From Escherichia coli (GTDB lineage: Bacteria; Pseudomonadota; Gammaproteobacteria; Enterobacterales; Enterobacteriaceae): a stretch of DNA of 64,000 nt. Both the position numbers and the translations under genes were made by a program. Under the pieces are notes generated by a model. It saw only the letters and a list, made by a program, of their open reading frames with translations. It made no database searches and was not told where the DNA came from. The DNA is taken from assembly GCF_003019035.1 (NCBI RefSeq), contig NZ_CP027447.1; one strand, 5' to 3'. Below are positions 2,995 through 40,277 of the stretch, piece by piece. Numbering within the stretch: the first letter of the stretch is position 1; each line of letters starts with the position of its first letter.

Positions 2995-3000
2995 AATCAA
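2995..3000. repeat. Target-site duplication, low-coordinate copy, (A)ATCAA
   Basis: AATCAA immediately precedes the TG prophage terminus at 3001; the same hexamer follows the CA terminus at 40272..40277. Confidence 0.6.
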
Positions 3001-3045
3001 TGATGCGCCGCGCGATAAACGTACCTATTTCCGTGAGATAAATTA
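3001..3045. repeat. Right-end terminal inverted repeat with two putative transposase-binding motifs
   Basis: TGATGCGCCGCGCGATAAACG...CCGTGAGATAAAT; motifs GCGATAAAC (3012..3020) and CCGTGAGATAAAT (3031..3043) are mirrored at the other end. Confidence 0.55.
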
Positions 3046-3078
3046 CATCGCCGCGGCATTTCAATATCAGAAAAAGAA

Positions 3079-3651
3079 TTACAACTCAGCTTGAGTTTGA
3101 AGTTCCTCTACAGGGTGATAACGATAAATCGTCGATATACCGATATCGTAAATAATTGCCAACTGTTTCCTGCTATAGCCATTTTTGATCAGCCTTGCTA
3201 TTTGTTCATGTTGCTCTTTTGTCAGTTTCGGACGACGTCCACCAATACGCCCCTGTGCACGTGCTGCTTCAAGTCCGGCCAGTGTTCGTTCGACTATTAA
3301 TTCACGCTCCATTTCCGCTAAAGCCCCCATGACGTGAAAAAAGAAACGTCCCATGGGTGTTGACGTATCAATGCTGTCTGTAAGACTACGGAAGTTAACC
3401 CCTTTTTCCCGCAGTTCCTCAATAAGAGTGATTAGGTGTTTCATGCTTCTGCCCAGCCTGTCCAGCTTCCAGACAACGAGCGTATCTCCTTCTGATAACG
3501 TTCTGAGCAGCTTTTTCAATCCCGGTCGGGCTGACTTTGTTCCGCTGATTTTATCCTCAAAAATCAGTTCACATCCTGCGCAGTTCAGTGCGTTTCGTTG
3601 TAAATCTGTATTCTGGTCATTTGTTGACACACGAATGTAGCCAATTTGCAT
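3079..3651 (-). CDS. Site-specific DNA invertase, serine recombinase of the Gin/Pin/Hin/Cin/Min family
   Basis: 190 aa from the ATG at 3649-3651: MQIGYIRVSTNDQNTDLQRNAL... with the catalytic Ser motif and a C-terminal HTH (GYSRKQLAIIYDIGISTIYRY). The track ORF extends further upstream from a non-ATG start. Confidence 0.9.
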   Translation of the reverse strand: MQIGYIRVSTNDQNTDLQRNALNCAGCELIFEDKISGTKSARPGLKKLLRTLSEGDTLVVWKLDRLGRSMKHLITLIEELREKGVNFRSLTDSIDTSTPMGRFFFHVMGALAEMERELIVERTLAGLEAARAQGRIGGRRPKLTKEQHEQIARLIKNGYSRKQLAIIYDIGISTIYRYHPVEELQTQAEL

Positions 3652-3705
3652 GAAAAATATCCTCTTTGTTTTGTTAAAAATACATAGCTGGTATAGGTGG
3701 GAGTT

Positions 3706-3930
3706 AAGACGAAAACGTTGGTTTGGGGGAAGGCTCTGCACTACCTGTTGGTGTGCCTGTTCCATGGCCGTCAGCCACACCGCCAACAGGGTGGCTGAAA
3801 TGTAACGGTGCAGCATTTTCTTCTGAAATGTACCCCAATCTGGCAAAGGCTTACCCCACGAATAAATTACCGGATTTACGGGGCGAATTTATCCGTGGCT
3901 GGGATGACGGACGAGGTATTGATGCAGGAC
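3706..3930 (+). repeat. Repeat copy A (~215 bp) starting with a candidate invertase crossover site
   Basis: GAAAACG-TT-GGTTTGGGGGAA at ~3706..3731 (core TT 3718-3719) resembles hix/gix half-sites (TTnnnnnAAACC); followed by the conserved tail-collar coding block GEGSALPVGVPVPWPSATPPTGWLKCNGAAFSS... Confidence 0.7.
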
Positions 3931-4184
3931 GAGAGATACTTTCATTTCAGGAAGGCACTATCGTCTCCGGTTTTGATGATAATGATACTGGGGATATCAG
4001 TTCACTTAGCTCAACACAATACGGATTTGGTGACACTCTAACCTCTAATCAATGGGGGGCCATAAATGGCAAAAAGTGGATATTTGATGCATCCAGTAAA
4101 GGTGCACAAAAATATGACTGGTGGGCTTATGTATCAGCTCGTCCGCGTAATATTGCATTTAATTACATCGTAAGAGCGGCATAG
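3723..4184 (+). CDS. Silent alternative tail-fibre C-terminal cassette A (tail-collar half plus variable receptor-binding end)
   Basis: 153 codons opening at TTG, no canonical start; shares the N-terminal ~68 aa and the terminal SARPRNIAFNYIVRAA with the expressed fibre; inverted relative to the fibre gene. Confidence 0.65.
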   Translation: MGEGSALPVGVPVPWPSATPPTGWLKCNGAAFSSEMYPNLAKAYPTNKLPDLRGEFIRGWDDGRGIDAGREILSFQEGTIVSGFDDNDTGDISSLSSTQYGFGDTLTSNQWGAINGKKWIFDASSKGAQKYDWWAYVSARPRNIAFNYIVRAA

Positions 4185-4402
4185 AAACGTTGGTTTGGGG
4201 GAAGGCTCTGCACTGCCCGTTGGTGTACCTGTTCCGTGGCCCTCAGCCACTCCACCAACGGGCTGGCTGAAATGCAACGGCGCAGCATTTTCTTCTGAAG
4301 ATTACCCCAAACTGGCACAGGCTTACCCCGCGAACAAATTACCGGATCTACGGGGTGAATTTATCCGTGGCTGGGATGACGGGCGAGGGATTGATGCAGG
4401 AC
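4179..4402 (+). repeat. Repeat copy B (~215 bp) starting with a candidate invertase crossover site
   Basis: AGAAACG-TT-GGTTTGGGGGAA (core TT 4191-4192) directly after the stop of cassette A; same conserved coding block. Confidence 0.7.
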
Positions 4403-4671
4403 GTGCTTTATTAAGCTTTCAAACTGGGATGCTGGAAAAACACCGCCATATTGTTGTAGCTAACGATGGGTATGACACAAAGGATGAATGGGAGTTGGCC
4501 ACAATTTTCAAAAAAACATATACACAAGGACGGGGACTTGATGCCACAAGTACAGGCGGGAGTCTGATCCCATCACCGACACTTCATTCACGAGGGAGTA
4601 TTGGTAACACTGGTGGTAGTGAAACTCGCCCCCGCAATATCGCATTTAACTATATCGTGAGGGCGGCTTAA
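4195..4671 (+). CDS. Silent alternative tail-fibre C-terminal cassette B
   Basis: 158 codons opening at TTG; conserved N-terminal block and terminal ETRPRNIAFNYIVRAA; distinct variable middle. Confidence 0.65.
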   Translation: MGEGSALPVGVPVPWPSATPPTGWLKCNGAAFSSEDYPKLAQAYPANKLPDLRGEFIRGWDDGRGIDAGRALLSFQTGMLEKHRHIVVANDGYDTKDEWELATIFKKTYTQGRGLDATSTGGSLIPSPTLHSRGSIGNTGGSETRPRNIAFNYIVRAA

Positions 4672-4677
4672 TTATAC

Positions 4678-5295
4678 TCAACTGGCTGCTGCCAGAGGCA
4701 TTTCCGGCCAGTTGATATCCGGTGCAGTGCTGATGTCAGTCGCATTAAGCGTATCTATGAAATCAAGCACGGCGTTTAGTTTTTCCGTCTCCTGGGGCGT
4801 CAATCGGCGTCCGGCTCGTAGTTTGAGATTAATAAGCTCAACAGATGCCATTGCCTGTTCCTCAAGTTGCTGACGATGCGCTCCGGCAGCTTCCAGTTCT
4901 GCTGCGTGCTGTCGTCTCGTATCTGTCACCCAAATCTCACCATCCCAGACATCATAGATAGTAGCTGGCTGTTTCACCGTCGTATCAGGAGGGTAATCTC
5001 CCGGTTGTGTGATTTGCACAGCGTTACCATTCTCTGTGCTGTAAACCGTTTCGCCTCTGTGGTCTGGAACATATTTCCAGATGTTCTGGTCGGTATCACG
5101 ACAGACAGCGAAGCCGGGGCGTTTTTCTGGTGGCGCGTCAATGCATGAGTGAGCCGGAATTCCAACACCATAAGCGAGATACTCAACAGTGGCAGAGAGA
5201 TATTCACGGTTTTCAGCATCGTAGTTATAAACGGTAATATCGCCTGCAGTTATAGCGATACCATTCTGATCAAGTACTGCAGCAGCATTATTCAT
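4678..5295 (-). CDS. Tail fibre assembly protein (Tfa; Mu U / P2 G-like chaperone)
   Basis: 205 aa with the Tfa-type C-terminus ...LNAVLDFIDTLNATDISTAPDINWPE...; its ATG overlaps the stop of cassette 3 (TAATG); the only tfa in the region. Confidence 0.8.
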   Translation of the reverse strand: MNNAAAVLDQNGIAITAGDITVYNYDAENREYLSATVEYLAYGVGIPAHSCIDAPPEKRPGFAVCRDTDQNIWKYVPDHRGETVYSTENGNAVQITQPGDYPPDTTVKQPATIYDVWDGEIWVTDTRRQHAAELEAAGAHRQQLEEQAMASVELINLKLRAGRRLTPQETEKLNAVLDFIDTLNATDISTAPDINWPEMPLAAAS

Positions 5296-5768
5296 TAAGT
5301 AGCCCTTACAATATAGTTAAACGCAATATTACGGGGGCGGTTTTCCGTTCCTGTATTCCCTCCGTTGGCACCTAATCTATAAACACCACGAGTGCCAATA
5401 GCACGTAGTGAAGATGGAACTTTTACACCTGACTCATCTGTTTTAACAATCCCGCCATCACCGTATGTAGCCAGTATACCAGGGTTTGTTCCTGCACGGG
5501 TGCTGTTTGCGGCAAGCCCTTCACCAGTCCATAACTCCATATAATGAATATGATCTATAACCGAATGTGATTGTGCATTAAGCAAGGAACGCCCTGAATC
5601 AATTCCCCGCCCGTCATCCCAGCCACGAATAAACTCGCCCCGTAAATCCGGTAATTTATTGGTGGGGTAAGCCTTTGCCAGTTTGGGGTACATTTCAGAA
5701 GAAAATGCTGCACCGTTACATTTCAGCCACCCCGTTGGCGGCGTGGCTGAAGGCCATGGAACGGGCAC
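5295..5768 (-). CDS. Alternative tail-fibre C-terminal cassette 3 (same orientation as the fibre gene, translationally coupled to tfa)
   Basis: 157 codons from a GTG; conserved block then unique variable region, ending ...RPRNIAFNYIVRAT. Confidence 0.65.
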   Translation of the reverse strand: MPVPWPSATPPTGWLKCNGAAFSSEMYPKLAKAYPTNKLPDLRGEFIRGWDDGRGIDSGRSLLNAQSHSVIDHIHYMELWTGEGLAANSTRAGTNPGILATYGDGGIVKTDESGVKVPSSLRAIGTRGVYRLGANGGNTGTENRPRNIAFNYIVRAT

Positions 5769-5815
5769 ACCAACGGGCAGCGCCGAGCCTTCCCCTAAAC
5801 CAACGTTTTCATGCG
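5588..5815 (-). repeat. Repeat copy 3 with candidate crossover site
   Basis: Minus-strand GAAAACG-TT-GGTTTAGGGGAA (plus-strand core 5802-5803) directly after the stop of cassette 2. Confidence 0.7.
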
Positions 5816-6147
5816 GCTCTTACGATGTAATTGAATGCAACGTTGCGGGGGCGTGTTTCTGCTGTGCCGACAATACTGGTACTCAGTCCTGTCGCTGTTC
5901 GTTTGTTATTTTTATTCCCTTCGATAAGACAGTTGTAATCGTCATTACCAATTAACGAGTTGGTGGCATCAATACCGTCCGGGGACAAGGCATTAGTTGT
6001 GGAACTTAAAGTCAGCATCTCGTCTGAACTTGGAAGATTTTTTAATGGGGTCTCATTACGTGAAATACCCGCATAAAAAAAGGACTCATGCCTGTGCGCT
6101 TCAAAAGAGTCATCCTGAAGACTTAGCAAGGCACGCCCAGCATCCAA
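5809..6147 (-). CDS. Alternative tail-fibre C-terminal cassette 2 (variable part; conserved block lies upstream at ~6135..6357)
   Basis: Track ORF opens at TTG within ...WDDGRGLDAGRALLSLQDD...; ends ETRPRNVAFNYIVRAA. Confidence 0.6.
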   Translation of the reverse strand: MDAGRALLSLQDDSFEAHRHESFFYAGISRNETPLKNLPSSDEMLTLSSTTNALSPDGIDATNSLIGNDDYNCLIEGNKNNKRTATGLSTSIVGTAETRPRNVAFNYIVRAA

Positions 6148-6358
6148 GCCACGTCCATCATCCCAGCCACGGATAAATTCACCCCGTAGATCCGGTAATT
6201 TGTTCGCGGGGTAAGCCTGTGCCAGTTTGGGGTAATCTTCAGAAGAAAATGCTGCGCCGTTGCATTTCAGCCAGCCCGTTGGTGGAGTGGCTGAGGGCCA
6301 CGGAACAGGTACACCAACGGGCAGTGCAGAGCCTTCCCCAAACCAACGTTTCTATGCT
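6135..6358 (-). repeat. Repeat copy 2 with candidate crossover site
   Basis: Minus-strand AGAAACG-TT-GGTTTGGGGAAGG (plus-strand core 6345-6346) abutting the stop of the expressed fibre gene. Confidence 0.7.
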
Positions 6359-7317
6359 GCTCTCACAATGTAGTTAAAGGCGATGTTGCGTGGACGAGTT
6401 ACATTAAAAAAGGACCCACTTAAAGCAGCTTTGGCACGACCAGCGACGTTACCCAGAATTGCATACCATAAATAATCACTCCTGTAATTCGTTGAAAATG
6501 TTTTATCGCCACCGTAATCAATACTATTTCCGTTACTCATATATGAAATATCAACTGCGGCATCATTGTCATCTCTACCACCAACCAAAGTACCTTTCTG
6601 CCACCCAAGCAACTGGCGACCAGGATCAATCCCGCGCCCGTCATCCCAGCCACGGATAAATTCACCCCGTAAATCCGGTAATTTATTGGTGGGGTAAGCT
6701 TTTGCCAGTTTGGGATACATTTCAGAAGAAAATGCTGCACCGTTACATTTCAGCCAGCCCGTTGGTGGTGTTGCTGAGGGCCACGGAACAGGCACACCAA
6801 CGGGCAGCGCAGAGCCTTCCCCCAAACCAAGGTTTTTGACAAACAGCGCAGGATCAGGAATATCTGCGCCGTTCTGGTCTTTAGCCAGCTTTTCCGCCAG
6901 CTTGTTCAGTACCGTAGTCGCAAAGTTTGGATCATTACCGAGAGCGTCAGCCAGCTCTTTAAGCGTATCCAGTGTCTCAGGGGCGCTGCCTGCAAGCGCC
7001 GCAAGTGCTTTGGCCACAAACTCCGTTGTCGCCAGCTTTTTGCTGTTATCGCCATTTGCAGGTGTAGGTGCTGTTGGTGTGCCGGTGAATGTCGGACTGG
7101 CTTTCTGTGCGTACTGGGTATGCGGGTCTGCTGCCGCGATGTGTTTCGCAAGGTCAGCCCCGCCTTTTTCAACCTGTTGCTTCAGGTACAGCGTGCGGCT
7201 GGCCAGTTGTTTACCCTGACGGTTAGAAATTCCGTCAGGTCCGCCCAGAACGGGGTCAGAGACCTCAATCTGGTAGATGCCGTCTTCCCACTGCGGGGTT
7301 TCGGGTAGATTTGCCAT
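6352..7317 (-). CDS. Tail fibre protein (constant N-terminal part fused to currently expressed variable C-terminus 1)
   Basis: 321 aa; N-terminal fibre region (TTEFV motif), tail-collar block from residue ~164, ends VTRPRNIAFNYIVRAA; position matches Mu S. Confidence 0.85.
   Translation of the reverse strand: MANLPETPQWEDGIYQIEVSDPVLGGPDGISNRQGKQLASRTLYLKQQVEKGGADLAKHIAAADPHTQYAQKASPTFTGTPTAPTPANGDNSKKLATTEFVAKALAALAGSAPETLDTLKELADALGNDPNFATTVLNKLAEKLAKDQNGADIPDPALFVKNLGLGEGSALPVGVPVPWPSATPPTGWLKCNGAAFSSEMYPKLAKAYPTNKLPDLRGEFIRGWDDGRGIDPGRQLLGWQKGTLVGGRDDNDAAVDISYMSNGNSIDYGGDKTFSTNYRSDYLWYAILGNVAGRAKAALSGSFFNVTRPRNIAFNYIVRAA
6612..6843 (-). repeat. Repeat copy 1, inside the expressed fibre gene, with the crossover site joining constant and variable parts
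   Basis: Sense-strand GTCAAAAACC-TT-GGTTTGGGGGAAGG (plus-strand core 6829-6830), a near-palindrome AAACCAAGGTTT resembling hix. Confidence 0.7.
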
Positions 7318-7319
7318 AA

Positions 7320-7898
7320 TTAACTGCTCCCGTGGTTGTAACTACCGTTATAACGGGTAGTACTGTTGTATCGAATGGCGACAGACTGATATTCCAGACT
7401 TGCCAGATGACAGCGAGCCGGAGCAAAGGCAGCAAGCGTCTGACGTAACAGCGCCGCCTGATCGTTAGTGATGGGTTGTTGAAGGATGACGCGATAGACT
7501 GCCCAGGCTTGTGCATCACCATGGACGAAAAGCCCGTTGTACGTGTGTCTGCCGTCATAGCCAATCTGCCCCGTACCTTCAATCAGATCCACTTCGCCGA
7601 AGCCAAAACGGCGGATAATTTCCCGGATTGACCACGGTGTTCCTTTATAGCGGTGTAGCTCGATAGCGGATTTGATAAGCATGCGGCGCACATCGTCCGA
7701 TTCCGCCAGTTCCCAGCCATCGCCGAACAGCGAGAACTGCTCGCCAAGCCATGGCAGCGCGGAACTGTCGACAATATCGACGAGACCGACCATCAGTACG
7801 CTCAGGTCGATGTTATCCAGCCGTCCGGCCAGTCTTCCCAGCGTTCTGAGACTGATATCACCCTCAAGCGGTGGCGGGAGTTGTAGCACCTCAGCCAT
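7320..7898 (-). CDS. Baseplate/tail protein (P2 gpI / Mu gp48-like)
   Basis: 192 aa; position immediately upstream of the fibre gene and resemblance to P2 gpI-type proteins. Confidence 0.6.
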   Translation of the reverse strand: MAEVLQLPPPLEGDISLRTLGRLAGRLDNIDLSVLMVGLVDIVDSSALPWLGEQFSLFGDGWELAESDDVRRMLIKSAIELHRYKGTPWSIREIIRRFGFGEVDLIEGTGQIGYDGRHTYNGLFVHGDAQAWAVYRVILQQPITNDQAALLRQTLAAFAPARCHLASLEYQSVAIRYNSTTRYNGSYNHGSS

Positions 7899-7976
7899 CG
7901 GACACCCCGGTCATGTTAAGAGTGATCGCCGTACAGTTTGCCCATTCGTTTTCTGCCACCACCCTCAGTGCCGGTG

Positions 7977-8993
7977 TCACCAGTTCGACCGGTACACCCC
8001 GGAAACGGACAACACGCTGATAATCTGGCTGGGAACAATATCGCGCCCCAGCGTGGCGGTACGGGATGCCACCCAGTTCTGTATGGCGCTGTTAGCGTTG
8101 TCCTTTACCAACCTTGCATCCTGATCACGATAGATCGTAATCCTGGCTTCAATGGTGTAATCCACCTGAACAGGTGTTTTAGCCCGCACGGTATCAGTGA
8201 GTGGTCTGACTTTTTCGTCAGAACAGAAACTCTCTACCAGAGTGAGGATACTGCTGTCCGGCAGACCAGTGCTGAGCAGCGGATACAGCTCGACAGTGCC
8301 GGGAGCGGGAGAAAGAACAGCAACGTCGACAATGCCGGGATGCGCCCCCATAGCATGAAAACGGTATGCACCACGGCTTCCGGCATTGGTGAATGACTCC
8401 GGGGCCAGCCTGATACGCTCCCGGAGTCGGTCATCGTCTTCCTGCTCTGAACCGCCAGAGCTGGCCGTCAGATTGGTCACCAGCAGGTCAATGTTATCAA
8501 TCTCATCGAGTAACTGACTGACCTGCGCCGGTTGCCAGCCGTTGCCAGCGGTACCCGGCTCGGTACAGGTGGCCGTGACATTGACCAGCAGCAATCCGGC
8601 CTTCAGCACCACATCTGTATCGGTGGCAAAAATAATACTGTCGGAAGCGCTGACGCGGGTGCCTGCCGGGATCAGCACATCAATGGCCAGTGCCTCATCC
8701 ACAGAGAACTGAAGTGTGGTGGTGGCAGGCTGCGCAGCAAGGCGGTATACACCGACCAGTTCACCGAGGTAATCAATCATCGGCTCCCGGGAAAAGGCGA
8801 CCAGATTCAGCTTCGCCGCCTCCTGTACCGCCACCCTGACCAGCATTTCGCGATAGGCCCACAGGTCTATCAGCAGACGTTCTGCCTGTGCCGGGTACAA
8901 CGTTTTGCCGGTATCCGCTTCATACTTCGCAATCATTTCTGCCGTGATTTTATCGGCATCGCGTTCAATAAAATCGGGTTCTGTCAGCGCCAT
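7977..8993 (-). CDS. Baseplate protein J-like (Mu gp47-like)
   Basis: 338 aa; gene order and size match baseplate J. Confidence 0.65.
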   Translation of the reverse strand: MALTEPDFIERDADKITAEMIAKYEADTGKTLYPAQAERLLIDLWAYREMLVRVAVQEAAKLNLVAFSREPMIDYLGELVGVYRLAAQPATTTLQFSVDEALAIDVLIPAGTRVSASDSIIFATDTDVVLKAGLLLVNVTATCTEPGTAGNGWQPAQVSQLLDEIDNIDLLVTNLTASSGGSEQEDDDRLRERIRLAPESFTNAGSRGAYRFHAMGAHPGIVDVAVLSPAPGTVELYPLLSTGLPDSSILTLVESFCSDEKVRPLTDTVRAKTPVQVDYTIEARITIYRDQDARLVKDNANSAIQNWVASRTATLGRDIVPSQIISVLSVSGVYRSNW

Positions 8994-9331
8994 AGCAGTT
9001 CCTGAGTACGGGGTTGTCCGTCTGAGCCTTTCCAGCTCACCCGGAGCGTAAGATGTTCGCCGTCGACGGCGGGTTTAACCGACATAAGCTGGCAGCGGGG
9101 TTCCCAGCGCCTGATGGCATCGACGGATTCGCGAACCACATGCGGAATGGCCCGGTCGACAGGCCAGTCGATATAAAGGTGCAGATTGCTGCCGAACTCC
9201 GGGCGATGCGGGTCGCTGCCGCGGGGAGTCCGCAGGATGATCTGGATGGACTGCCGGATATCATCCAGCCCCCGGACGATTTCGCCGGGAGCCTGCAGAG
9301 CTGGTTGCCAGAATACTGAGGTCGTTTTCAT
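8984..9331 (-). CDS. Baseplate wedge protein W/gp25-like (Mu gp46-like)
   Basis: 115 aa; size and position typical. Confidence 0.6.
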   Translation of the reverse strand: MKTTSVFWQPALQAPGEIVRGLDDIRQSIQIILRTPRGSDPHRPEFGSNLHLYIDWPVDRAIPHVVRESVDAIRRWEPRCQLMSVKPAVDGEHLTLRVSWKGSDGQPRTQELLWR

Positions 9332-9387
9332 GGAGGCAGTATTGCCCCCGGGAAGTAAGCACCGATATTAAAGGCGTTTAAGAAGGT

Positions 9388-30322: not shown

Positions 30323-30329
30323 AACAGAA

Positions 30330-30352: not shown

Positions 30353-30438
30353 TAAATCAGCCCATTCCTGCCATGCTACTGACGGCGCTTTCTGAAAGCG
30401 TCCAGATCAACCACCTGTCCTTTGTGTCCGGGTCAGAA

Positions 30439-30816: not shown

Positions 30817-30878
30817 TTTTGGGATAATAATCTAACATATATAGAGCAAACATCATTGCGTTAATAAAGGAGGCAACA

Positions 30879-31067: not shown

Positions 31068-31113
31068 AAAGATACAGCATGCGAAAAAGATTATCACATA
31101 TTGAAAAAGAGGT

Positions 31114-31428: not shown

Positions 31429-31438
31429 GGAGTAATCA

Positions 31439-32350: not shown

Positions 32351-32353
32351 CCA

Positions 32354-34135
32354 ATGAATGCTGCCCTGACTGAACGACTGGTTTATGTCGCCCGCGCGGC
32401 ACGTGACGCGGGGCATGGTAAACGCGGTGCAATATACGACGCTGCCTGTGCTGAACTTGGCATGTCCCGCGCCACTCTGCTGCGCAGGCTGAAGGAGGTC
32501 TCTGTGACTGATAAACGCAAAAAACGCGCCGATGCCGGGCGCAGCGCTCTGACCCGCGACGAAGCCGCGCTGATATCTGCCACACTGCGTGAGGCCACCC
32601 GCAAGAACGGTAAGCGTCTCTATTCCATCGCAGATGCAGTGGAAACCCTGCGGGCTAACGGCTTTATCTCCGCAGGCAGAACAGATGAAACCACCGGTGA
32701 GTTTTTCCCGTTGTCCGAAGATGCCATCAGTCGTGCCCTGCGTAACTATGGCCTGCACCCGGAACAACTGGATGCCCCTGCACCGCATACCGAAGTGGCC
32801 AGTCTGCATCCCAATCATGTCTGGCAGATTGACGCCTCACTCTGCACGCTTTACTACCTGAGCAATGGACATAAAGGGCTGCAGGTGATGGACAGCGCGA
32901 AGTTCTACAAGAACAAGCCCGCTAACCTTGCCCGTATCGCCAGTGACCGCGTGTGGAGTTACGAGATTACCGACCATGCCAGCGGCTGGATTTACGTTGA
33001 GTATGTGACGGGCGCGGAATCCGGTGAGAACCTGTGTTCTGTGCTTATCAACGCCATGCAGGAGCGCGGTGGCGCAGACGTGCTGCACGGCGTGCCGAAA
33101 ATACTCTATCTCGACCCTGGCTCGGCAAACACCGCGGGTATGACGAAAAACATGTGCCGCTCACTGGGCATCGACCTGATAGCGCACAGGCCGCATAACG
33201 CCCGCGCCACCGGACAGGTGGAAAAGGCGCGTGACATTATCGAACGCAAGCTGGAGCCGGGTCTGAAGTTCCGGCCGGTTCACAGTCTGGAAGAACTCAA
33301 CGCGCTGGCCGCGAAATGGCGCAGCCACTTTAACGCCACGGCTGTTCACAGCCGCCACGGTAAAACCCGCACGGATATCTGGCTGAAGATTACTGCTGAG
33401 CAGCTGAAAAAAGCGCCTTCCGTTGAAGTATGCCGTGAACTGGCTGTGGCGACACCAGAACTCCGCAAAGTCACGCCAAAACTTCGTGTCTCGTTCCGGG
33501 GCACTGAATTTGACGTATCAACGGTACCGGGCGTACTGGTTGGTGAAAAACTGATGATTACCCGTAACCCATGGCGCAGCGATGTGGCACAGGTGGTTCT
33601 GACCGGTGAGGACGGCCACGAGACGTTCTTCCTGGTCGAAGAGGTCAGAAAGAACGAGTTTGGCTTTGCTGAAGGCGCGGCGGTATTTGGCGAAAGTTAC
33701 AAAGCCCTGCCGGAAACCCCGGCACAGATGGCGGCAAAAGAAACCGAAGCGCTGGTTACCGGTACAGACAACGCCGCAGATGCAGCCGCCGCACGCAAGG
33801 CGAAGGCGCTGCCGTTCGGCGGGCGGCTTGACCCGTATAAACATATCGACGACACCACACTTCCGGCCTATATGCCGAAGCGTGGTCAGGCCTCTGACGT
33901 ACGCGGGCCGCGCACTGAACAACGTCCCATGACTCATGTGGAGGCCGCGAAAGCCCTGCGCGATAAGTTCAGCGCCGACGGCCTTACCTGGACGCCGGAA
34001 CATTACCGCCAGTTAACGGCACAGTACCCGGACGGCGTACCGGAAGCTGCACTGGATGAAGTCATGGCCACGCTGACCACGCCGGCCCGCAGCAGCGTTA
34101 TCAGCAGCGTTATCAGCATTGTTAACGGCAACTGA
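32354..34135 (+). CDS. DDE transposase (integrase catalytic core; functional analogue of Mu A)
   Basis: 593 aa; candidate catalytic region HVWQIDAS...YLDPGSANTAG; followed by the transposition ATPase gene. Confidence 0.8.
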   Translation: MNAALTERLVYVARAARDAGHGKRGAIYDAACAELGMSRATLLRRLKEVSVTDKRKKRADAGRSALTRDEAALISATLREATRKNGKRLYSIADAVETLRANGFISAGRTDETTGEFFPLSEDAISRALRNYGLHPEQLDAPAPHTEVASLHPNHVWQIDASLCTLYYLSNGHKGLQVMDSAKFYKNKPANLARIASDRVWSYEITDHASGWIYVEYVTGAESGENLCSVLINAMQERGGADVLHGVPKILYLDPGSANTAGMTKNMCRSLGIDLIAHRPHNARATGQVEKARDIIERKLEPGLKFRPVHSLEELNALAAKWRSHFNATAVHSRHGKTRTDIWLKITAEQLKKAPSVEVCRELAVATPELRKVTPKLRVSFRGTEFDVSTVPGVLVGEKLMITRNPWRSDVAQVVLTGEDGHETFFLVEEVRKNEFGFAEGAAVFGESYKALPETPAQMAAKETEALVTGTDNAADAAAARKAKALPFGGRLDPYKHIDDTTLPAYMPKRGQASDVRGPRTEQRPMTHVEAAKALRDKFSADGLTWTPEHYRQLTAQYPDGVPEAALDEVMATLTTPARSSVISSVISIVNGN

Positions 34136-34145
34136 GGAGGAAAAC

Positions 34146-35312
34146 ATGCTGGTACTGAAGCAGCAACTGAAAGAGGCCCGTATCCCACAGGCGGTGGTGG
34201 CGAGAGCTGTCGATGTTTCTGAGGCCACGCTGGCCCAGATTGTGAATCATAACGCGTGGCCCCGCACCCGCCCCGGAGAAGTGCGCCGGCGTCTTGCGTC
34301 CTGGCTGGAAAGTCAGGGGATTGATACAACGAAGAGTTTTGATGCTGTACAGGGCGCGGCCACGCCCCGTACAGCGGGTACCACAGATAAAACGAGCCTC
34401 AGTGAGGAAGAGAATATGTTACTCAAAAAACAGGTGTTATTTCCAGCAACCAAAAAAGCGTTTGGTCTTTTCCGTGACCCGTTCGCCGACGAAGCCATGC
34501 AGGGTTCTGATGATGTGTTCACCACCCCGGACATTCGCTACGTGCGTGAGGCGCTGTACCAGACAGCCCGTCATGGTGGGTTTATGGCCGTCATCGGTGA
34601 GTCCGGTGCGGGTAAATCCACGCTGCGCCGCGACCTGACTGAACGTATCAACCGCGAGAATGCGCCGGTAATTGTTATCGAGCCATACATCATCGCTATG
34701 GAAGACAACGATGTGAAAGGGAAAACCCTGAAGGCAGCAGCTATTGCCGAAGCCATTATCAGTACCATCGCACCACTGGAAAGCATCAGACGCAGTCAGG
34801 ACGCCCGCTTTCGCCAGTTGCATCGCGTCCTGAAAGACAGCAGCCAGGCGGGGTTCAGCCACGTTCTGGTGATTGAGGAGGCTCACAGTCTGCCCATTCC
34901 GACACTGAAACACCTCAAACGCTTTTTTGAGCTGGAGTCCGGTTTCAAAAAACTGCTGTCCATCGTGCTGATTGGTCAGCCGGAACTGGCGACAAAACTG
35001 TCTGAACGCAATATGGAAGTCCGTGAAGTCGTTCAGCGCTGTGAGGTGGTCGAACTTCTGCCTCTGGACAATAACCTTGAAGAGTTTCTGACGTTCAAAC
35101 TGCAACGGGCCGGTAAACAACTGACGGACATTATGGACGCCAGTGCAGTGGATGCCATACGTGCCCGCCTGAGCAATCCGGGAAGTCATCGTAAAAATAT
35201 GGTCAGCCTGCTGTATCCGCTGGCCGTCAGTAACCTGGTGATAGCCGCCATGAATCTGGCCGCTGAAATCGGGGTTCCACAGGTCAACGCTGACGTTGTC
35301 AAAGGGGTTTAA
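34146..35312 (+). CDS. AAA+ transposition ATPase (Mu B / TniB-like)
   Basis: Walker A GESGAGKST and Walker B VLVIEEAH; ATG at 34146 with GAGGAGG RBS; the track ORF opens at an upstream TTG. Confidence 0.75.
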   Translation: MLVLKQQLKEARIPQAVVARAVDVSEATLAQIVNHNAWPRTRPGEVRRRLASWLESQGIDTTKSFDAVQGAATPRTAGTTDKTSLSEEENMLLKKQVLFPATKKAFGLFRDPFADEAMQGSDDVFTTPDIRYVREALYQTARHGGFMAVIGESGAGKSTLRRDLTERINRENAPVIVIEPYIIAMEDNDVKGKTLKAAAIAEAIISTIAPLESIRRSQDARFRQLHRVLKDSSQAGFSHVLVIEEAHSLPIPTLKHLKRFFELESGFKKLLSIVLIGQPELATKLSERNMEVREVVQRCEVVELLPLDNNLEEFLTFKLQRAGKQLTDIMDASAVDAIRARLSNPGSHRKNMVSLLYPLAVSNLVIAAMNLAAEIGVPQVNADVVKGV

Positions 35313-35314
35313 TA

Positions 35315-35584
35315 ATGAAATCCACCACAGGTATCAACCAGCAAATCAGCAAAGTGCAGTCAGCCATTATGGCGCTTAAGGCGACGAACACGGATGTACA
35401 AAGCATCACCATCAGGGGTAACAAACCTGTCATCCGCGTTTCCCGGAGTGCGCATTGCATGCGCATGCTTGAGCAGGGAAAGGCCTGTTATCTGTATACC
35501 GGACATGACCACAGGGGATATTTCCGTCAGGGCGTTTTCGAACTGCACGGCTGTCGCGTCGTGTGGCCGGAATCTTTGTGGTAA
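35315..35584 (+). CDS. Hypothetical early protein
   Basis: 89-aa ORF directly after the ATPase gene. Confidence 0.4.
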   Translation: MKSTTGINQQISKVQSAIMALKATNTDVQSITIRGNKPVIRVSRSAHCMRMLEQGKACYLYTGHDHRGYFRQGVFELHGCRVVWPESLW

Positions 35585-35611
35585 TCAGCACAACTGGAGA
35601 AATCATAAAAT

Positions 35612-36142
35612 ATGGCAAAAAGTACAAAAGGGGCAAAACGTATCAAGTCCGCAGCGGCACTCTGGGTACCAGGGACACGCGAAGAGGTCATTGAGGGCAT
35701 CAGACTGCTCGGTGACGCACAACGTGAACTGGTCAGGGCTGAAACAGAAATGAATGACGCCATTGGCGATATCACCGCACGTTATGCCCCGCTCACCGAG
35801 AGCCTGAAAAAACGCATGGCCGAACTGCAGTCCGGTATTCAGACATGGTGTGAGGCACACCGTGATGAACTGACCGGCAACGGGAAGGTGAAGTTCGCTA
35901 ACCTCACCACCGGCGAGGTGCAGTGGCGAAACCGTCCGCCATCAGTCAGTATCCGTGGAGCGGATAATGTTATTGAACTACTGAGACGTCTGGGGCTTGA
36001 GCGCTTTATTCGTGTAAAAGAGGAAATAAATAAAGATGCCATTCTGAATGAAAAAGAGGCCGTGAAAAATATTCCCGGTATTACCATAAAAAGTGATATT
36101 GAGGATTTTTCAATAATTCCTTTTGAGCAGGATGTGCAGTAA
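35612..36142 (+). CDS. Gam-like host-nuclease inhibitor / DNA-end binding protein
   Basis: 176 aa, size and sequence character of Mu Gam; RBS GGAGA. Confidence 0.6.
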   Translation: MAKSTKGAKRIKSAAALWVPGTREEVIEGIRLLGDAQRELVRAETEMNDAIGDITARYAPLTESLKKRMAELQSGIQTWCEAHRDELTGNGKVKFANLTTGEVQWRNRPPSVSIRGADNVIELLRRLGLERFIRVKEEINKDAILNEKEAVKNIPGITIKSDIEDFSIIPFEQDVQ

Positions 36143-36239
36143 ACACACCACGTTAATTATTTAATAAAAATATTTTCTTTTTTATTCCGGCGTCAGCGCC
36201 GTGGGCTTCTGCACGCCGGAAACAGAGGAGAATTAAATT

Positions 36240-36434
36240 ATGATATTTAAATGTATTCAGTGCGAGAGGGATATAACAGCCCTGCGTTTTCACAGCGCCA
36301 TCGCCGTGATGTCCGGTAAATACCACATCCCTGCGGTACGCGTCACCCTGGTCTGCCCGTACTGCAGCCAGCATTTTTCGGCGGACGTGCCCGTCATGGA
36401 ATTCTCCCGCCCTGACAGGGAGGACGCGCAATGA
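36240..36434 (+). CDS. Small zinc-ribbon protein
   Basis: 64 aa with CIQC...CPYC; RBS GAGGAG. Confidence 0.45.
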   Translation: MIFKCIQCERDITALRFHSAIAVMSGKYHIPAVRVTLVCPYCSQHFSADVPVMEFSRPDREDAQ

Positions 36435-36703
36435 TTACCCCACAGGAAGCACGACAGCGCACCCGAACCCTTGTTGAACACTATGTCAACGAGTGTGAAT
36501 GCCGCGACCTCACCGATGTGAAGCACGTCCTGACGGCGCTAATCAGCATGGCCGCTCAGGCCATTGTGGCGACCAACGGAAAGGCGGCTGCCCTGCAGGT
36601 ACTGGTGAACACACTCACCCACACGGCAGAGCATGAGGTGCCGTACCGGATGGAAACCACTGCAGAAGGCGGCCTGCACATCACCGTCAGCCGGAAGCAC
36701 TGA
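36431..36703 (+). CDS. Hypothetical early protein
   Basis: 90 aa; ATGA overlap with the upstream gene. Confidence 0.4.
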   Translation: MITPQEARQRTRTLVEHYVNECECRDLTDVKHVLTALISMAAQAIVATNGKAAALQVLVNTLTHTAEHEVPYRMETTAEGGLHITVSRKH

Positions 36704-36712
36704 GGGCGCGGC

Positions 36713-37009
36713 ATGACACGAAACACCGAACTCACCCGCACCGCCCTCTACCGTCTGGCCCTGCACCGTTTCGGGCCGGACGCACAGGCCCTGAAACTGA
36801 CAGAAGAGGCCGCTGAACTGGCGGCCAGTGCTGCCCGCAATCTGAACGGACAGGGCAACGAAAGTGACCTCGCGGCAGAGCTGGCAGACGTGGAAATCAT
36901 GACAGAGCAATTGCGCCTTCAGGGGATGGACCGGCTGATTGACTTCCACAAACAGAAAAAACTGGAACGTCTGGCTGCACGACTGGGCGTGATTTACACG
37001 AACGAGTAA
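36713..37009 (+). CDS. MazG-like nucleotide pyrophosphohydrolase domain protein
   Basis: 98 aa with EExxE and ExxD motifs (LTEEAAELAA...ELADVEIM) typical of all-alpha MazG/HisE-type NTP pyrophosphatases. Confidence 0.5.
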   Translation: MTRNTELTRTALYRLALHRFGPDAQALKLTEEAAELAASAARNLNGQGNESDLAAELADVEIMTEQLRLQGMDRLIDFHKQKKLERLAARLGVIYTNE

Positions 37010-37023
37010 CCGGGAGGCATTCA

Positions 37024-37239
37024 ATGGCTGACATACTCAGGGAAATCACCGCATGGATACTGATTCTTACTGGCCTGGCGACATGCCTCAGTGCGGGGGC
37101 AGCCCTGGCTGCCCTGCTGATGCACATAACAACACAGTGGTTATGGGAAAAGCTTAAAGCAGCATACAGCCTGAAAGAGCTGTCCGACGCTGTCCGGGCA
37201 TGGAAACGGCAGAAAAATACCGGAGATACAGAACAATGA
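37024..37239 (+). CDS. Small membrane protein
   Basis: 71 aa with one hydrophobic helix; RBS GGGAGG. Confidence 0.4.
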   Translation: MADILREITAWILILTGLATCLSAGAALAALLMHITTQWLWEKLKAAYSLKELSDAVRAWKRQKNTGDTEQ

Positions 37240-37919
37240 CAGACCAGAATAAACACATTGAGAAACTGAAAAAGTTGCTGGCGCTGGCCGCATCCGGCAA
37301 CCCGCACGAGGCCGCTCTGGCACTGCGCCGAGCCCGTAAACTGATGGATGTTCACGGCATCACACATTCCGACATTGCTATGAGTGATATTGATGAAACC
37401 ATCAGTCATTACTGGCCGACAGGCAGTCTCCGTCCACCGCGCTACATGCTGGGCCTGATGAACATCATCCGCGAGGCATTTGGTGTTAACTCCATCATTC
37501 ACCCCGGCACGCATCCGTCTGTGGGGTTCTACGGTAACCGGGAACGAGCGGCACTGGCTGCGTACACCTGGGAAGTGCTGGTCCGCCAGCTGAAAAAGGC
37601 GCGTCAGCAGTATATCAGCGCACAGAACAAAAGAATAAAAAACGCCACCCGTACCAGCCGTGGAGACCAGTTTGCTGAAGGCTGGGTACTGGCCGTTATC
37701 AGTGAAATACAGTCCTTTGCCCTGACCGATGATGAGCGTGAACTGATGCAACAGTGGCTGGAACATAAATACCCGCAAACGCAAACCACCAGGGCGCGTA
37801 AACCGGGAAGAAGCCGCAATGGCGACGCCTCGCGCTATGCGGGGTTTCGTGAAGGGCAGAACGTCAGACTGCACCGCCCGGTCAGTGGGCAGGAACAACA
37901 GAAACTGGAGGCCAGATGA
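37236..37919 (+). CDS. Early protein with DUF2786-like N-terminal domain
   Basis: MTDQNKHIEKLKKLLALAASGNPHEAALALRRARKLM...; ATGA overlap with the upstream gene. Confidence 0.5.
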   Translation: MTDQNKHIEKLKKLLALAASGNPHEAALALRRARKLMDVHGITHSDIAMSDIDETISHYWPTGSLRPPRYMLGLMNIIREAFGVNSIIHPGTHPSVGFYGNRERAALAAYTWEVLVRQLKKARQQYISAQNKRIKNATRTSRGDQFAEGWVLAVISEIQSFALTDDERELMQQWLEHKYPQTQTTRARKPGRSRNGDASRYAGFREGQNVRLHRPVSGQEQQKLEAR

Positions 37920-38146
37920 TTACGCTATCAGGTAACAGCCGGAAATTAAAAGCCTGCCGAATATCTGCCAGATACCTTTTTGCCCGCGCCTTTTTTAAGA
38001 ACGTCAGGCCGGGGATCACAATTGGTGTTATTGCCGGACGCGAACAGGTTGAAAAATACATGTCAGGTGCATGGTGGGATAACGACCCTGTCATTGCTGC
38101 CCGTAATATTCATATCAGTTGGGGGGATATTCAGAATGACGGCTGA
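37916..38146 (+). CDS. Hypothetical protein
   Basis: 76-aa ORF, ATGA overlap with the upstream gene. Confidence 0.35.
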   Translation: MITLSGNSRKLKACRISARYLFARAFFKNVRPGITIGVIAGREQVEKYMSGAWWDNDPVIAARNIHISWGDIQNDG

Positions 38147-38351
38147 ATCTGTTGTATGTGCCCTGTTCTGGTATTGTTTTGTCGGTTGGTGTACTGCTGA
38201 ACTGCACCGCCGTTCAGGGTTTTATTCACGTTACAGTGGTGCCGGCTACTGGATTAGCTGGTCGGTGATGTTCCTGTGCTGGCCTGTGGCGCTTCCTTTA
38301 TATGTCGGTTATATCGGTGGCGCAGGTAAAAGGAGCAACGATGATGACTAA
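38136..38351 (+). CDS. Small membrane protein
   Basis: 71 aa from the ATG at 38136 after a G-rich RBS; two hydrophobic helices. Confidence 0.4.
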   Translation: MTAESVVCALFWYCFVGWCTAELHRRSGFYSRYSGAGYWISWSVMFLCWPVALPLYVGYIGGAGKRSNDDD

Positions 38352-38793
38352 ACAACGTCTTATCCAGCTCATTCATATTGCCCGTAATGAACTGGGTATG
38401 GATGAAGACACCTACCGCCAGATGTTACAGGGGCTGACCGGTAAAGCCTCAACCAAAGGAATGGATACCACACAACTAAACTGCGTGCTGGAATCCATGA
38501 AAAGGAAAGGCTTTCGCGTTAAGCCTGCCGGAAAAGCCAGCTCCGGTTTACCGCTGGATAACCATCCGCAGTCCAGGAAAATCCGTGCGCTATGGCTTGA
38601 AATGGCTGCTGCCGGCATTGTTCGTGACCGTTCAGAAAATGCATTAGCGCGGTGGATCAAGCGGGAAACGGGCATCAGCGCCCTGCGCTGGCTCAATACT
38701 GAACAGGCAAGCAGTGTTATTGAGAAACTGAAGAAGTGGCAGCACAGAGCTGCGGGAGTAAAACATGAGCGACCTGAATCAGTTTCGAAGTAA
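38341..38793 (+). CDS. GemA/gp16-like protein
   Basis: MMTKQRLIQLIHIARNELGMDEDTYRQMLQGLTGKAS... matches the GemA family pattern. Confidence 0.6.
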   Translation: MMTKQRLIQLIHIARNELGMDEDTYRQMLQGLTGKASTKGMDTTQLNCVLESMKRKGFRVKPAGKASSGLPLDNHPQSRKIRALWLEMAAAGIVRDRSENALARWIKRETGISALRWLNTEQASSVIEKLKKWQHRAAGVKHERPESVSK

Positions 38794-39163
38794 AGGGCCG
38801 GAACTCCTGGTGGAGCTGGCACAGCATACCTCTGAGACCGTTCGCGAGATTATTGATATTGAGCCCGCAATTGCCGACCAGATTGGTCAGGCCGTCGCGA
38901 ACCGAATGATGCAGGTCTGGGGCGGGCAAAACGTTTATTTCCCGATGGGCATGGTATGGAAGGTCAGTCAGCGCGACCGGGAAATCTTCAGGGAGTTTAA
39001 CGGACGCAACCACCACGAACTGGCCCGCAAGTTTGGTGTTTCGCTTCAGTGGGTCTACAGCGTGGTTAAGCGGGTCAGAAAAGAAGAACTGGATCGGATG
39101 CAGGGCAGGTTGTTTGATGAAGATCTGCCAGAGGAGACGAAAGACGTTAACAAATCCAGATAA
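38765..39163 (+). CDS. Mor/C-family transcription activator
   Basis: C-terminal GGQNVYFPMG...RDREIFREFNGRNHHELARKFGVSLQWVYSVVKR matches the Mor/C pattern (GGxxVYIPxG...FNGRN..EL...YGV...VY). Confidence 0.7.
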   Translation: MSDLNQFRSKGPELLVELAQHTSETVREIIDIEPAIADQIGQAVANRMMQVWGGQNVYFPMGMVWKVSQRDREIFREFNGRNHHELARKFGVSLQWVYSVVKRVRKEELDRMQGRLFDEDLPEETKDVNKSR

Positions 39164-39205
39164 TTCCTGCTTGTTAAAGTCCTTTCAAAAATCTCCTTAT
39201 TGTAT

Positions 39206-39240
39206 AAAAGCACGGTAGACCCCTTACCGTGCTTTTTTTA
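39206..39240 (+). terminator. Rho-independent terminator after the Mor-like gene
   Basis: GCACGGTA-gacccct-TACCGTGC followed by a run of seven T. Confidence 0.7.
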
Positions 39241-39277
39241 TGCTCTCTCTTTAGTATTCAGGATGCAGGGAGAAAAT

Positions 39278-39910
39278 ATGTTTGACGTTTCGTTGTTAAA
39301 TCTGCCATGGGCAACACTGGTGACCCTGACCAGTGGCTATATTGGGTATTTTATTGCGAATGTGGGACTGAAGGATCACCACAAGCCCATTGAGGTGACT
39401 TTTTCTTCGCTGATTTTTGGCCTGACAGCAATGATGGCTTACCAGGCTGTTATGTGGGCAGGTCTGAATGCCTGGCTGGCAACACCACCAGCACTTCTGT
39501 GTGCCGTTACATGCGGTGCGTGGTGGCGCAGGTACGGTCGCAAATGGATGTACAGATTACTGTGGAATAATGATATTTCATGGTCTGACGATACCAGCTC
39601 AGCATGGCAGGCAATGTTTGATCAAACAGGCTTCAGCGTTACCGAGGTCAGAGTGATTCTTCGCGATGGTTCCGGTATGATGTCACGGCTGCCAGGGAAC
39701 TTTGAAGAGTGGCCTAACGGTCCGTTTACCCTGGGGAATAAAGGCGATATGGTTCTTTACGTCACGCACAGCAGCCCTTCAGGCAGTAACGAATGGGAAG
39801 AGTATAAAGGCGTGGTTGATAAGTACTGGGGAGCTCTGGCAACCTATATTCCAGCAGATCAGATTGCCAGAGTGGAGATCAGGCGCGTTCGTGCAACGAA
39901 CGATGAATGA
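39278..39910 (+). CDS. Hypothetical membrane protein (3 predicted TM helices plus soluble C-terminal domain), terminal accessory gene
   Basis: 210 aa from the ATG at 39278 with RBS AGGGAG; follows a terminator; last gene before the prophage end. Confidence 0.55.
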   Translation: MFDVSLLNLPWATLVTLTSGYIGYFIANVGLKDHHKPIEVTFSSLIFGLTAMMAYQAVMWAGLNAWLATPPALLCAVTCGAWWRRYGRKWMYRLLWNNDISWSDDTSSAWQAMFDQTGFSVTEVRVILRDGSGMMSRLPGNFEEWPNGPFTLGNKGDMVLYVTHSSPSGSNEWEEYKGVVDKYWGALATYIPADQIARVEIRRVRATNDE

Positions 39911-40226
39911 TGTTTATTTTTTCCCTGGGGCAGGGGCTGCCGGCATAGTGGTTTTATTGGCAGAGGAAGACGATTCTCCTTTTCTACCGGAATCGCGCTC
40001 GAACGTCACGATGTGCTTGCTTTTGGGCTTTTCTGAGTAATCCAGGCTATCATGCTTATTGTTTTGAGTAGTCATTGGAATCATCCTTTTTGTTGCGGGT
40101 CATGTTTCAGCAAACTCGATTCTAAGTTGCCAGGAAGGATGATTTCAATGCCCGACTTATCTATCGTATAGCGGAAAAGAATTTCAGTTCTGTTCACCAG
40201 AACCCATGTTAACCCACTCCAATTCG

Positions 40227-40271
40227 TTATTTATCTCACGGATCCCCCTTCATTTATCTCATGTCTGATCA
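40227..40271. repeat. Left-end terminal inverted repeat with two putative transposase-binding motifs
   Basis: Reverse complement reads TGATCAGACATGAGATAAATG...CCGTGAGATAAAT, mirroring the right end. Confidence 0.55.
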
Positions 40272-40277
40272 AATCAA
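40272..40277. repeat. Target-site duplication, high-coordinate copy, (A)ATCAA
   Basis: AATCAA immediately after the CA terminus at 40271; identical to 2995..3000. Confidence 0.6.

Follow-up and report, generated by a model that had tools for sequence, protein, structure and literature searches.

The window, a 64,000-nucleotide stretch of Escherichia coli DNA (contig NZ_CP027447.1), carries a prophage of 37,271 bp (37.3 kb; 3001-40271) between the divergent genes anmK and slyB, 115 bp away from the start codon of anmK and 164 bp away from that of slyB. The genes of the element form two divergent clusters, with early genes (30879-39163) on the plus strand reading toward the right tip and late genes (3079-28262) on the minus strand. 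The 5' tip is TG, the letters from 3001 onward being TGATGCGCC, and the 3' tip is CA, within ...TGATCA ending at 40271. A copy of AATCAA lies directly outside each tip (2995-3000 and 40272-40277). These tips and the flanking repeat had been claimed by a sequence-only reading of this DNA, and the letters at both ends bear them out.

Alignment with two empty sites, each holding a single AATCAA, gave the same boundaries and identified the repeat as a target-site duplication. In E. coli SCU-301 the anmK-slyB spacer is uninterrupted, and an in-silico empty site (made by joining the letters of the window up to 3000 to those from 40278) matched it at 200 of 200 positions. In K-12 MG1655 the spacer is 273 bp, in line with the short K-12 spacer that had been described for this site; deletion of the element with one copy of AATCAA regenerates the 273-bp spacer exactly, with one base differing between MG1655 and the window. 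The duplication had also been called a pentamer, which is incorrect. We compared seven independent insertions (anmK/slyB, rstB, kefF, clbG/H, yodD, kbl/tdh and mdfA) with the TG...CA tips held fixed, and the duplication was a hexamer in 7/7, with a different sequence each time. At yodD, kbl/tdh and mdfA the adjoining bases allow no duplication length other than 6 bp. The junction of this element with the anmK-slyB spacer was found in 0 of 5,426 complete E. coli genomes. Over 23.7 kb its right flank shows 100.0% identity with SCU-301, a strain lacking the element, so the insertion is recent.

A short direct repeat around an element with a recombinase gene adjoining one end could also arise by site-specific integration, in which AATCAA would be the att core and the integrase would be the serine recombinase encoded at 3079-3651 (minus strand). 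This recombinase, recognized by serine-recombinase NCBIfam matches, is however a 190-aa DNA invertase (Gin/Hin/Cin family) that shares 75% identity with Mu Gin, lies beside an invertible fibre segment and lacks the large C-terminal domain of serine integrases. Moreover, ends nearly identical to these are found at numerous unrelated loci, and the 6-bp repeat differs from one locus to the next. This multiplicity of insertion sites refutes site-specific integration, to which we assign a negligible probability, and transposition is the preferred reading.

Each tip carries two GAGATAAAT-like boxes, at nucleotides 10-20 and 33-43, which are conserved in BcepMu and B3. At the late-gene terminus (3001-3043, plus strand, 5'-TG), which corresponds to the right end of BcepMu and B3, the putative transposase-binding boxes are GCGCGATAAAC (3010-3020) and GTGAGATAAAT (3033-3043). 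At the early-gene terminus (40229-40271, minus strand, CA-3'), which corresponds to the left end of these phages, they are GTGAGATAAAT (40229-40239) and ATGAGATAAAT (40252-40262). In each pair the boxes are 23 bp apart. The pattern GYGMGATAAAY occurs three times in the 64 kb against 0.23 expected, always at the tips (3010-3020, 3033-3043 and 40229-40239), and a fourth copy with one mismatch lies at 40252-40262. The mirrored terminal motifs of the sequence-only reading are thus real, non-random and equally spaced, but their strands had been swapped: GCGATAAAC and CCGTGAGATAAAT are found on the plus strand at the left end, with the complements at the right end. One pair is also mirrored inexactly, the right-end counterpart of GCGATAAAC reading ATGAGATAAAT. 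Conservation in relatives, which had been proposed as a check, was observed in that the boxes align in register at the ends of both BcepMu and B3. By analogy with these phages, the four boxes would be bound by the transposase of the element.

This transposase, TnpA (593 aa; 32354-34135, plus strand), is a DDE enzyme with an rve core and a conserved D160/D254/E290 triad; it was assigned by Pfam rve, the sole Pfam domain found in it, and by phrog_310 (transposase). Over 97-98% of its length it shares 68% identity with BcepMu gp09 and 57% with B3 TnpA. Directly downstream lies tnpB (34146-35312, plus strand), which encodes an ExeA-like AAA+ ATPase (phrog_296, 'DNA transposition protein'; Pfam AAA_22) that is 58% identical to BcepMu gp08. 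TnpB is a putative transposition partner and probably the functional analogue of MuB.

The early operon starts upstream of tnpA (30879-32350, plus strand) with homologues of BcepMu gp16, gp12 and gp10, namely a 62-aa DNA-binding protein (30879-31067), an HTH regulator (31114-31428) and a gp10-like protein with no assigned function (31439-32350). Beyond tnpB, the remaining early/middle operon (35315-39163, plus strand), annotated by PHROG and by comparison with BcepMu, Mu and the ABU 83972 prophage, encodes Gam (35612-36142; 63% identical to Mu Gam), a DUF2786 protein (37200-37919), GemA/gp16 (38302-38793; 36% identical to its Mu counterpart), the Mor activator (38765-39163; 31%) and small ORFs with no assigned function. 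Divergent from this operon, and about 9.5 kb from the nearest tip, lies the gene for a putative HTH lysogeny repressor (30439-30816, minus strand), which matches PHROG families of transcriptional repressors and regulators and occupies the position of BcepMu gp17. The adjoining variable central region (28360-30322) contains three ORFs with no assigned function (28360-28785, plus; 28861-29382, minus; 29413-29646, plus) and a Dam-type DNA adenine methylase gene (29558-30322, plus). At most 79% of 28262-31114 is covered in any one complete E. coli genome. Close to the right tip (39278-40075) are two accessory ORFs, of 210 aa (39278-39910, plus) and 53 aa (39914-40075, minus), which belong to phrog_12870 with no assigned function, gave no PADLOC or NCBIfam match and are 100% identical to those of the ABU 83972 copy.

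The late cluster comprises lysis, packaging and head, and tail genes, all on the minus strand. The lysis cassette (25877-28262), with homologues of BcepMu gp21-26, consists of a holin (27879-28262), an SLT-type endolysin (27154-27882), an Rz-like protein (26511-27164) and two small proteins (26188-26514 and 25877-26188). The packaging and head module (17445-25880), assigned by PHROG and by phage-protein comparisons, encodes a DUF3486 TerS (25326-25880), a TerL of a swapped Terminase_6N/6C type (24013-25329), a DUF935 portal (22517-24013), Mu F-like (21715-22563) and Mu G-like (21254-21712) proteins, a protease/scaffold (19924-21039), the major capsid protein (18956-19909) and head-tail connectors (17445-18946). 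TerL is only 24% identical to the BcepMu and ABU 83972 proteins and belongs to a different lineage, so that the packaging details of BcepMu (pac site, amount of host DNA) are not simply transferable. A P2-like contractile tail and baseplate follow (7320-17455), with sheath (16028-17455), tube (15507-16028), chaperone (14790-15131), tape measure (12150-14615), gpJ (7977-8993), gpI (7320-7898) and U-like, X, D, V and W proteins. Here the homologues of BcepMu gp27-gp52 (24-77% identity) are colinear with that phage, which places a Mu-like head and a P2-like tail in BcepMu order, and PHROG agrees.

The gpJ gene raises the possibility that this copy is defective, that is, cryptic and perhaps able to transpose while producing no infectious particles. 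A 1-nt deletion near 7991 shifts its frame with loss of the last ~31 aa, leaving 338 aa against 367 aa in A31, ABU 83972 and MS1494; a real deletion might leave this copy unable to build baseplates. Every other ORF compared is however full length, and, judged against SCU-301, the insertion happened very recently. CCAGG (Dcm) contexts are places of systematic error in long-read assemblies, and the deletion lies in such a context, so it may be an assembly artefact. We consider a defective copy rather unlikely, and it would in any case be compatible with a B3/BcepMu identity.

Between gpI and the invertase gene lies a tail-fibre gene (6352-7317, minus strand) with a multiple-inversion region (3712-7317 in all). 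Five alternative C-terminal cassettes belong to this single fibre gene: Sv1, which is currently fused (6355-6825), Sv2 (5812-6342) and Sv3 (5301-5804) on the minus strand, and Sv4 (4195-4668) and Sv5 (3723-4181) on the plus strand. There is a single tail-fibre assembly gene (4678-5295, minus). The crossover-site sequence AAAAC(G/C)TTGGTTTGGGGGAAGG marks the start of every cassette, and in strain A31 the block 3712-5857 is present in the inverted orientation.

The element had been described as Mu-like, a name under which the B3/BcepMu group also goes loosely in the literature (PMC2771037, PMC8705779). The term holds for its lifestyle and for part of the head and regulatory set (Gam, GemA, Mor, portal, F and G), and fails for the transposition machinery and the genome layout. 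Membership of the true Mu family (Muvirus), with MuA/MuB transposition, a 5-bp duplication and the Mu gene order, could be argued from the homologues of Gam, GemA, Mor/C, portal, F, G and Gin, the TG...CA tips, the size of ~37 kb and the invertible fibre segment near one end of a temperate transposable myovirus. Against it, Mu A and Mu B gave no tblastn match in the element at E<=1e-3, c and ner were likewise without match, com/mom are absent, and in a comparison with 69 phage records Mu, D108 and SfMu did not match the window transposase, whose only Pfam domain is rve. In addition, the duplication is 6 bp and not 5 bp, the early operon runs in the opposite direction, the tail and baseplate are P2-like, and the fibre cassettes number five against two in Mu. 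In Mu the repressor c lies at the left tip and the genes are colinear in one direction, whereas here the repressor lies well inside the element and the two clusters are divergent. Of the Mu proteins 12/53 matched, against 35/47 of those of BcepMu, the latter in colinear order. Together these results, with no MuA-type transposase in the element, refute Muvirus membership, which we hold to be highly improbable.

The Burkholderia phages BcepMu (Bcepmuvirus; NC_005882) and phiE255 are among the closest known systems, and the gene order of the element equals that of BcepMu. BcepMu is described as having two divergent clusters, a Tn552/IS1604-family transposase, a P2-like tail and host DNA at the virion ends (PMC2771037, PMC2920897). 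The present element shares the two clusters with early genes directed toward the near end, the Tn552/IS1604-type rve transposase followed by the ExeA-like ATPase, Mor and GemA at the early tip, a lysis cassette with holin, SLT endolysin and Rz, the Mu-like head with P2-like tail, and TG...CA tips with two boxes 23 bp apart per end. It differs from this Burkholderia phage in its Escherichia host, in a protein identity of only 24-77%, in its TerL lineage, in having a Dam methylase, and in lacking the acyltransferase, HU and DUF3164 proteins. It also has a Gin-type invertase with a five-cassette invertible fibre region, whereas BcepMu has no tail-fibre inversion system (PMC2771037). With Pseudomonas phage B3 (Beetrevirus) it shares the transposase family, the in-register terminal boxes, an early operon inverted relative to Mu (PMC5977238), the 6-bp duplication that is the footprint of B3/Tn552-family transposases, and the TG-CA ends general to transposable phages of the B3/Tn552 type (PMC8705779); B3 is however a siphovirus with unrelated tail genes. 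The Tn552 transposon itself has a transposase of the same family, but is small and without phage genes.

The exact tips, the 6-bp duplication, the rve transposase with its AAA_22 ATPase and the many unrelated sites of near-identical copies all uphold the earlier reading of a transposable prophage. On this sequence evidence we are highly confident that 3001-40271 represents a complete or near-complete genome of a temperate transposable myovirus of the B3/BcepMu type, i.e. a saltovirus with a Tn552-related transposase, which transposed into the anmK-slyB spacer.

Among 5,426 complete E. coli genomes, at least 117 carry relatives, which occupy many loci. The late-gene terminus is present at >=99% identity at other loci in about 10 genomes, and the right-end 1.2 kb (39072-40271) is 100% identical among the best matches listed, at many different loci. 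The same phage lineage includes Escherichia phage PhiKM (PQ738613; 94-95% nucleotide identity over 66-73% of each element half, with a transposase 98% identical to TnpA), Klebsiella phage KP12 (OM835952; 86% identity over 57-82%), Escherichia phage Phi06_2974 B and the prophages of E. coli ABU 83972 and ST131. The ABU 83972 prophage matches the right-end 1.2 kb at 100% identity and most proteins at 95-100%. Its TerL, tape measure, immunity region, central cargo, left terminus with invertase, and fibre cassettes are different, and the two repressors, at about 50% identity, represent different immunity types. Judged by these differing modules, the element is a mosaic. The prophage is of an ordinary, common E. 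coli kind, and what is new are its mosaic and its insertion site.

Based on the B3, BcepMu and Mu paradigm, TnpA would bind the four boxes, pair the ends and nick at the 3' CA, after which the 3'-OH ends would be joined to target phosphates 6 bp apart, in target DNA chosen and delivered by the ATPase as in the family. Gap filling, by repair after infection or by replication in lytic growth, would then have produced the AATCAA duplication. During lysogeny the HTH repressor would keep the divergent early operon silent; upon induction, this operon would be read outward to the right tip, giving the regulators, TnpA, TnpB, Gam, GemA and Mor. The genome would be amplified by replicative transposition, as is characteristic of the family, and the lysis, head and tail genes, which read leftward, would be switched on by Mor. 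Headful packaging would probably proceed from near the early end and take along flanking host DNA, while the Gin-type invertase may vary host range by shuffling the five fibre C-terminal cassettes.

The element leaves current understanding unchallenged, and its value lies mainly in correct annotation: 'Mu-like' prophages of E. coli are often of the B3/BcepMu type, for which a footprint of 6 bp instead of 5 bp, other end sequences and other transposition proteins are to be expected. Because they insert nearly anywhere, such elements are natural insertional mutagens, and other copies disrupt rstB, kefF, mdfA, yodD and the colibactin clb cluster; the insertion described here could change the regulation of both anmK and slyB. 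Tentatively, and with somewhat less than even confidence, we propose that the BcepMu-type branch of E. coli and Klebsiella is an under-described lineage, carried by some 2-12% of the complete E. coli genomes (ABU 83972 and ST131 among them). Unlike BcepMu, it would have captured a Gin-family invertase and built a five-cassette, p15B-Min-like multiple-inversion fibre system, would swap terminase and immunity modules freely and, as the 100% identical flanks in an element-free strain suggest, may be moving actively in human-gut E. coli today.

The prophage in the anmK-slyB spacer is real and its ends are exact. The left junction reads ...CTTCAAATCAA up to position 3000 and TGATGCGCC... from 3001, while the right junction reads ...GTCTGATCA up to 40271 and AATCAATAATC... 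from 40272. An AATCAA direct repeat therefore stands on either side of a 37,271-bp segment whose first bases are TG and whose last bases are CA. In SCU-301, an Escherichia coli without the element at this locus, the spacer is uninterrupted, and a synthetic empty site (the window up to 3000 joined to 40278 onward) was identical to it at 200 of 200 positions. The corresponding spacer of K-12 MG1655 (273 bp) holds a single AATCAA and differs by one base from the reconstructed one. Junctions and empty sites are thus in agreement with the sequence-only reading, which had placed the element at 3001-40271 with this repeat and had proposed alignment to an element-free genome as a check.

Among 5,426 complete E. 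coli genomes, not one has this prophage-host junction. The 23.7-kb right flank is 100.0% identical to SCU-301, which makes the insertion recent by comparison with the nearest relative that has been sequenced. In 5,416 of the 5,426 genomes this entire flank is conserved; it includes a full-length Rfam match (396 bits) to the enterobacterial sRNA STnc550 at 58010-58400 (minus strand), which is ordinary core-genome content. The insertion divides the control region between the divergent genes anmK and slyB, 115 bp from the start codon of anmK and 164 bp from that of slyB (window 2886-2994 and 40278-40435). The sequence TGTTTATAATTGGTTGA at about 40297-40313, which resembles a PhoP box, remains on the slyB side.

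To establish the size of the duplication, both junctions were read for six more independent insertions, all of prophages closely related to this one. The repeats were AATCAA in the window, ATTTGT in rstB (strain ABU 83972), ACAGGA in kefF (MS1494), CCGCGC between clbG and clbH (ECAMP047), ACAGCG in yodD (an ST131 strain), GAAAGC between kbl and tdh (F1022) and ATTTGC in mdfA (A24), i.e. 6 bp in all seven insertions with no two sequences alike. In the first four of these, the base preceding the left repeat is an A, the same as the terminal A of the element, and a tip one base longer (...TGATCAA) with a 5-bp duplication was considered, as was a 7-bp duplication. Both readings were rejected because this base is T, T and C, respectively, in the yodD, kbl/tdh and mdfA insertions, and because the tips align with the defined TG/CA ends of the phages BcepMu and B3. 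A 6-bp footprint is that of the B3/Tn552-family transposases, whereas Mu duplicates 5 bp (PMC8705779).

The transposition genes belong to the same group. The transposase TnpA (32354-34135, 593 aa) has the rve integrase core as its sole Pfam domain, matches phrog_310, and shares 98% identity with its counterpart in Escherichia phage PhiKM, 68% with BcepMu gp09 and 57% with B3 TnpA; no Mu-family record was matched when it was queried against 50,697 phage records. BcepMu conserves its triad D160/D254/E290, in which the spacings are 94 and 36 residues (35 between D254 and E290). The next gene (34146-35312) encodes an ExeA-like AAA_22 ATPase matching phrog_296, 'DNA transposition protein', and is followed by Gam, GemA and Mor. 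A PDB sequence search with TnpA and the ATPase returned only marginal matches, to a retroviral integrase core and ABC ATPases. Of the 47 BcepMu proteins, 35 have colinear homologues here (24-77% identity), compared with only 12 of the 53 Mu proteins, these being Gam, GemA, Mor/C, TerL, portal, F, G, gp47, S and S' fragments, and Gin; the whole-proteome comparison gave no homologue of Mu A, B, c or ner. The genes are laid out as in BcepMu, in reverse: on the plus strand, the early genes point to the right tip; the repressor (30439-30816, minus strand) lies at the divergence point; and on the minus strand, the genes for lysis, head and P2-like tail point to the left tip. Such a divergent arrangement has been described for BcepMu and B3 (PMC2771037, PMC5977238). 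The element had been called a Mu-like transposable prophage, a reading that is right in kind, but it should be refiled from Mu to B3/BcepMu, whose prophages are a known and common type.

The termini carry the same signature. Three copies of the motif GYGMGATAAAY are present in the 64-kb window, where 0.23 would be expected, at 3010-3020 and 3033-3043 (plus strand) and 40229-40239 (minus strand), and a motif search located a fourth copy with one mismatch at 40252-40262 (minus strand), so spaced that the boxes are 23 bp apart at either end. Mirrored terminal motifs with similar spacing had been recognized rightly from the sequence, although their strands had been swapped, and the mirroring of GCGATAAAC is inexact, its counterpart at the right end being ATGAGATAAAT. 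When written tip-outward, both ends align in register with those of BcepMu (Burkholderia) and B3 (Pseudomonas): all begin with TG and have boxes at nucleotides 10-20 and 33-43. Even the difference that sets the early end (AGAGAG-TGAGA) apart from the late end (GCGCGGCGCGA) is preserved. The earlier reading had proposed to look for the terminal motifs in related prophages. ABU 83972-type copies have a diverged left end; about 10 other genomes have the version seen in the window, at 99% identity or more and inserted elsewhere.

The footprint, protein families, conserved ends and scattered insertion sites are direct observations. By analogy with its family, TnpA would bind the four terminal boxes, synapse the ends and nick at the 3' CA, after which the 3'-OH ends would be joined to target phosphates 6 bp apart on DNA presented by the AAA+ partner, and gap repair or replication would yield the duplicated AATCAA. 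Following induction, the genome would presumably multiply by repeated transposition, with Mor activating the late genes and heads being filled from integrated copies, carrying host DNA along.

Matches to the right-end 1.2 kb reach 80% coverage or more in 117 of the 5,426 complete genomes; they lie at many loci, with 100% identity in the best genomes among the matches listed; the Dam/immunity region has partial matches in 634 genomes. Among deposited phages, PhiKM (94-95% identity), Klebsiella KP12 (86%) and Phi06_2974 B come closest, and no dedicated description came up in literature searches on PhiKM and on BcepMu-like prophages of E. coli. The window copy is a mosaic. It shares most of its proteins with the ABU 83972 prophage at 95-100% identity, while TerL (24% identity), the tape measure, repressor, central ORFs, invertase with left tip, and fibre cassettes are replaced or strongly diverged. 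TerL (24013-25329) has 438 aa, compared with 507 aa elsewhere; truncation was rejected, as this is a complete Terminase_6N+6C protein from another lineage, with ~24% identity to the TerL proteins of BcepMu and of prophages that are nearly identical in other respects. Since the flanking genes are conserved (TerS 70% identity, portal 99%), this is a clean single-gene module swap. Region 28262-31114 reaches at most 79% coverage in any complete genome. Searches of the variable ORFs for known defence systems gave none with NCBIfam and one marginal LmuB-like match with PADLOC (E=2e-4, 18.7 bits), to a 173-aa ORF at 28861-29382 (minus strand) in the variable centre, which could be an accessory or defence-related moron.

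A multiple-inversion tail-fibre region spans 3712-6836, with its invertase at 3079-3651. For the C-terminal part of the fibre there are five alternative cassettes (three on the minus strand, two on the plus), accompanied by a single tail-fibre assembly gene, and the crossover-site sequence AAAAC(G/C)TTGGTTTGGGGGAAGG stands at the start of each cassette. This arrangement is closer to the Min system of p15B than to the two-state G segment of Mu; BcepMu is reported to have no inversion system (PMC2771037). Strain A31 carries the 2.1-kb block 3712-5857 in the opposite orientation, with another cassette joined to its fibre gene. The crossover site of one cassette, Sv2 (5812-6342), is one G short (GGGG vs GGGGG), and joining to the constant part at this site might cost the reading frame; Sv2 may be a dead cassette, or the GGGG a sequencing error.

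All ORFs compared are full length except gpJ. Baseplate gene J (7977-8993), intact in A31, ABU 83972 and MS1494, has a 1-nt deletion near 7991 (CCAGG to CCGG), and the frameshift costs the last ~31 residues (338 aa vs 367 aa). Long-read assemblies are prone to errors at CCWGG Dcm sites. The deletion is either a real inactivating mutation, by which the window copy could be defective, or an assembly error.

Sister copies interrupt host genes, namely rstB (ABU 83972), kefF (MS1494), mdfA (A24) and yodD (an ST131 strain), and the ECAMP047 copy lies between clbG and clbH within the colibactin island. These insertions are natural insertional mutations, and may have phenotypes.
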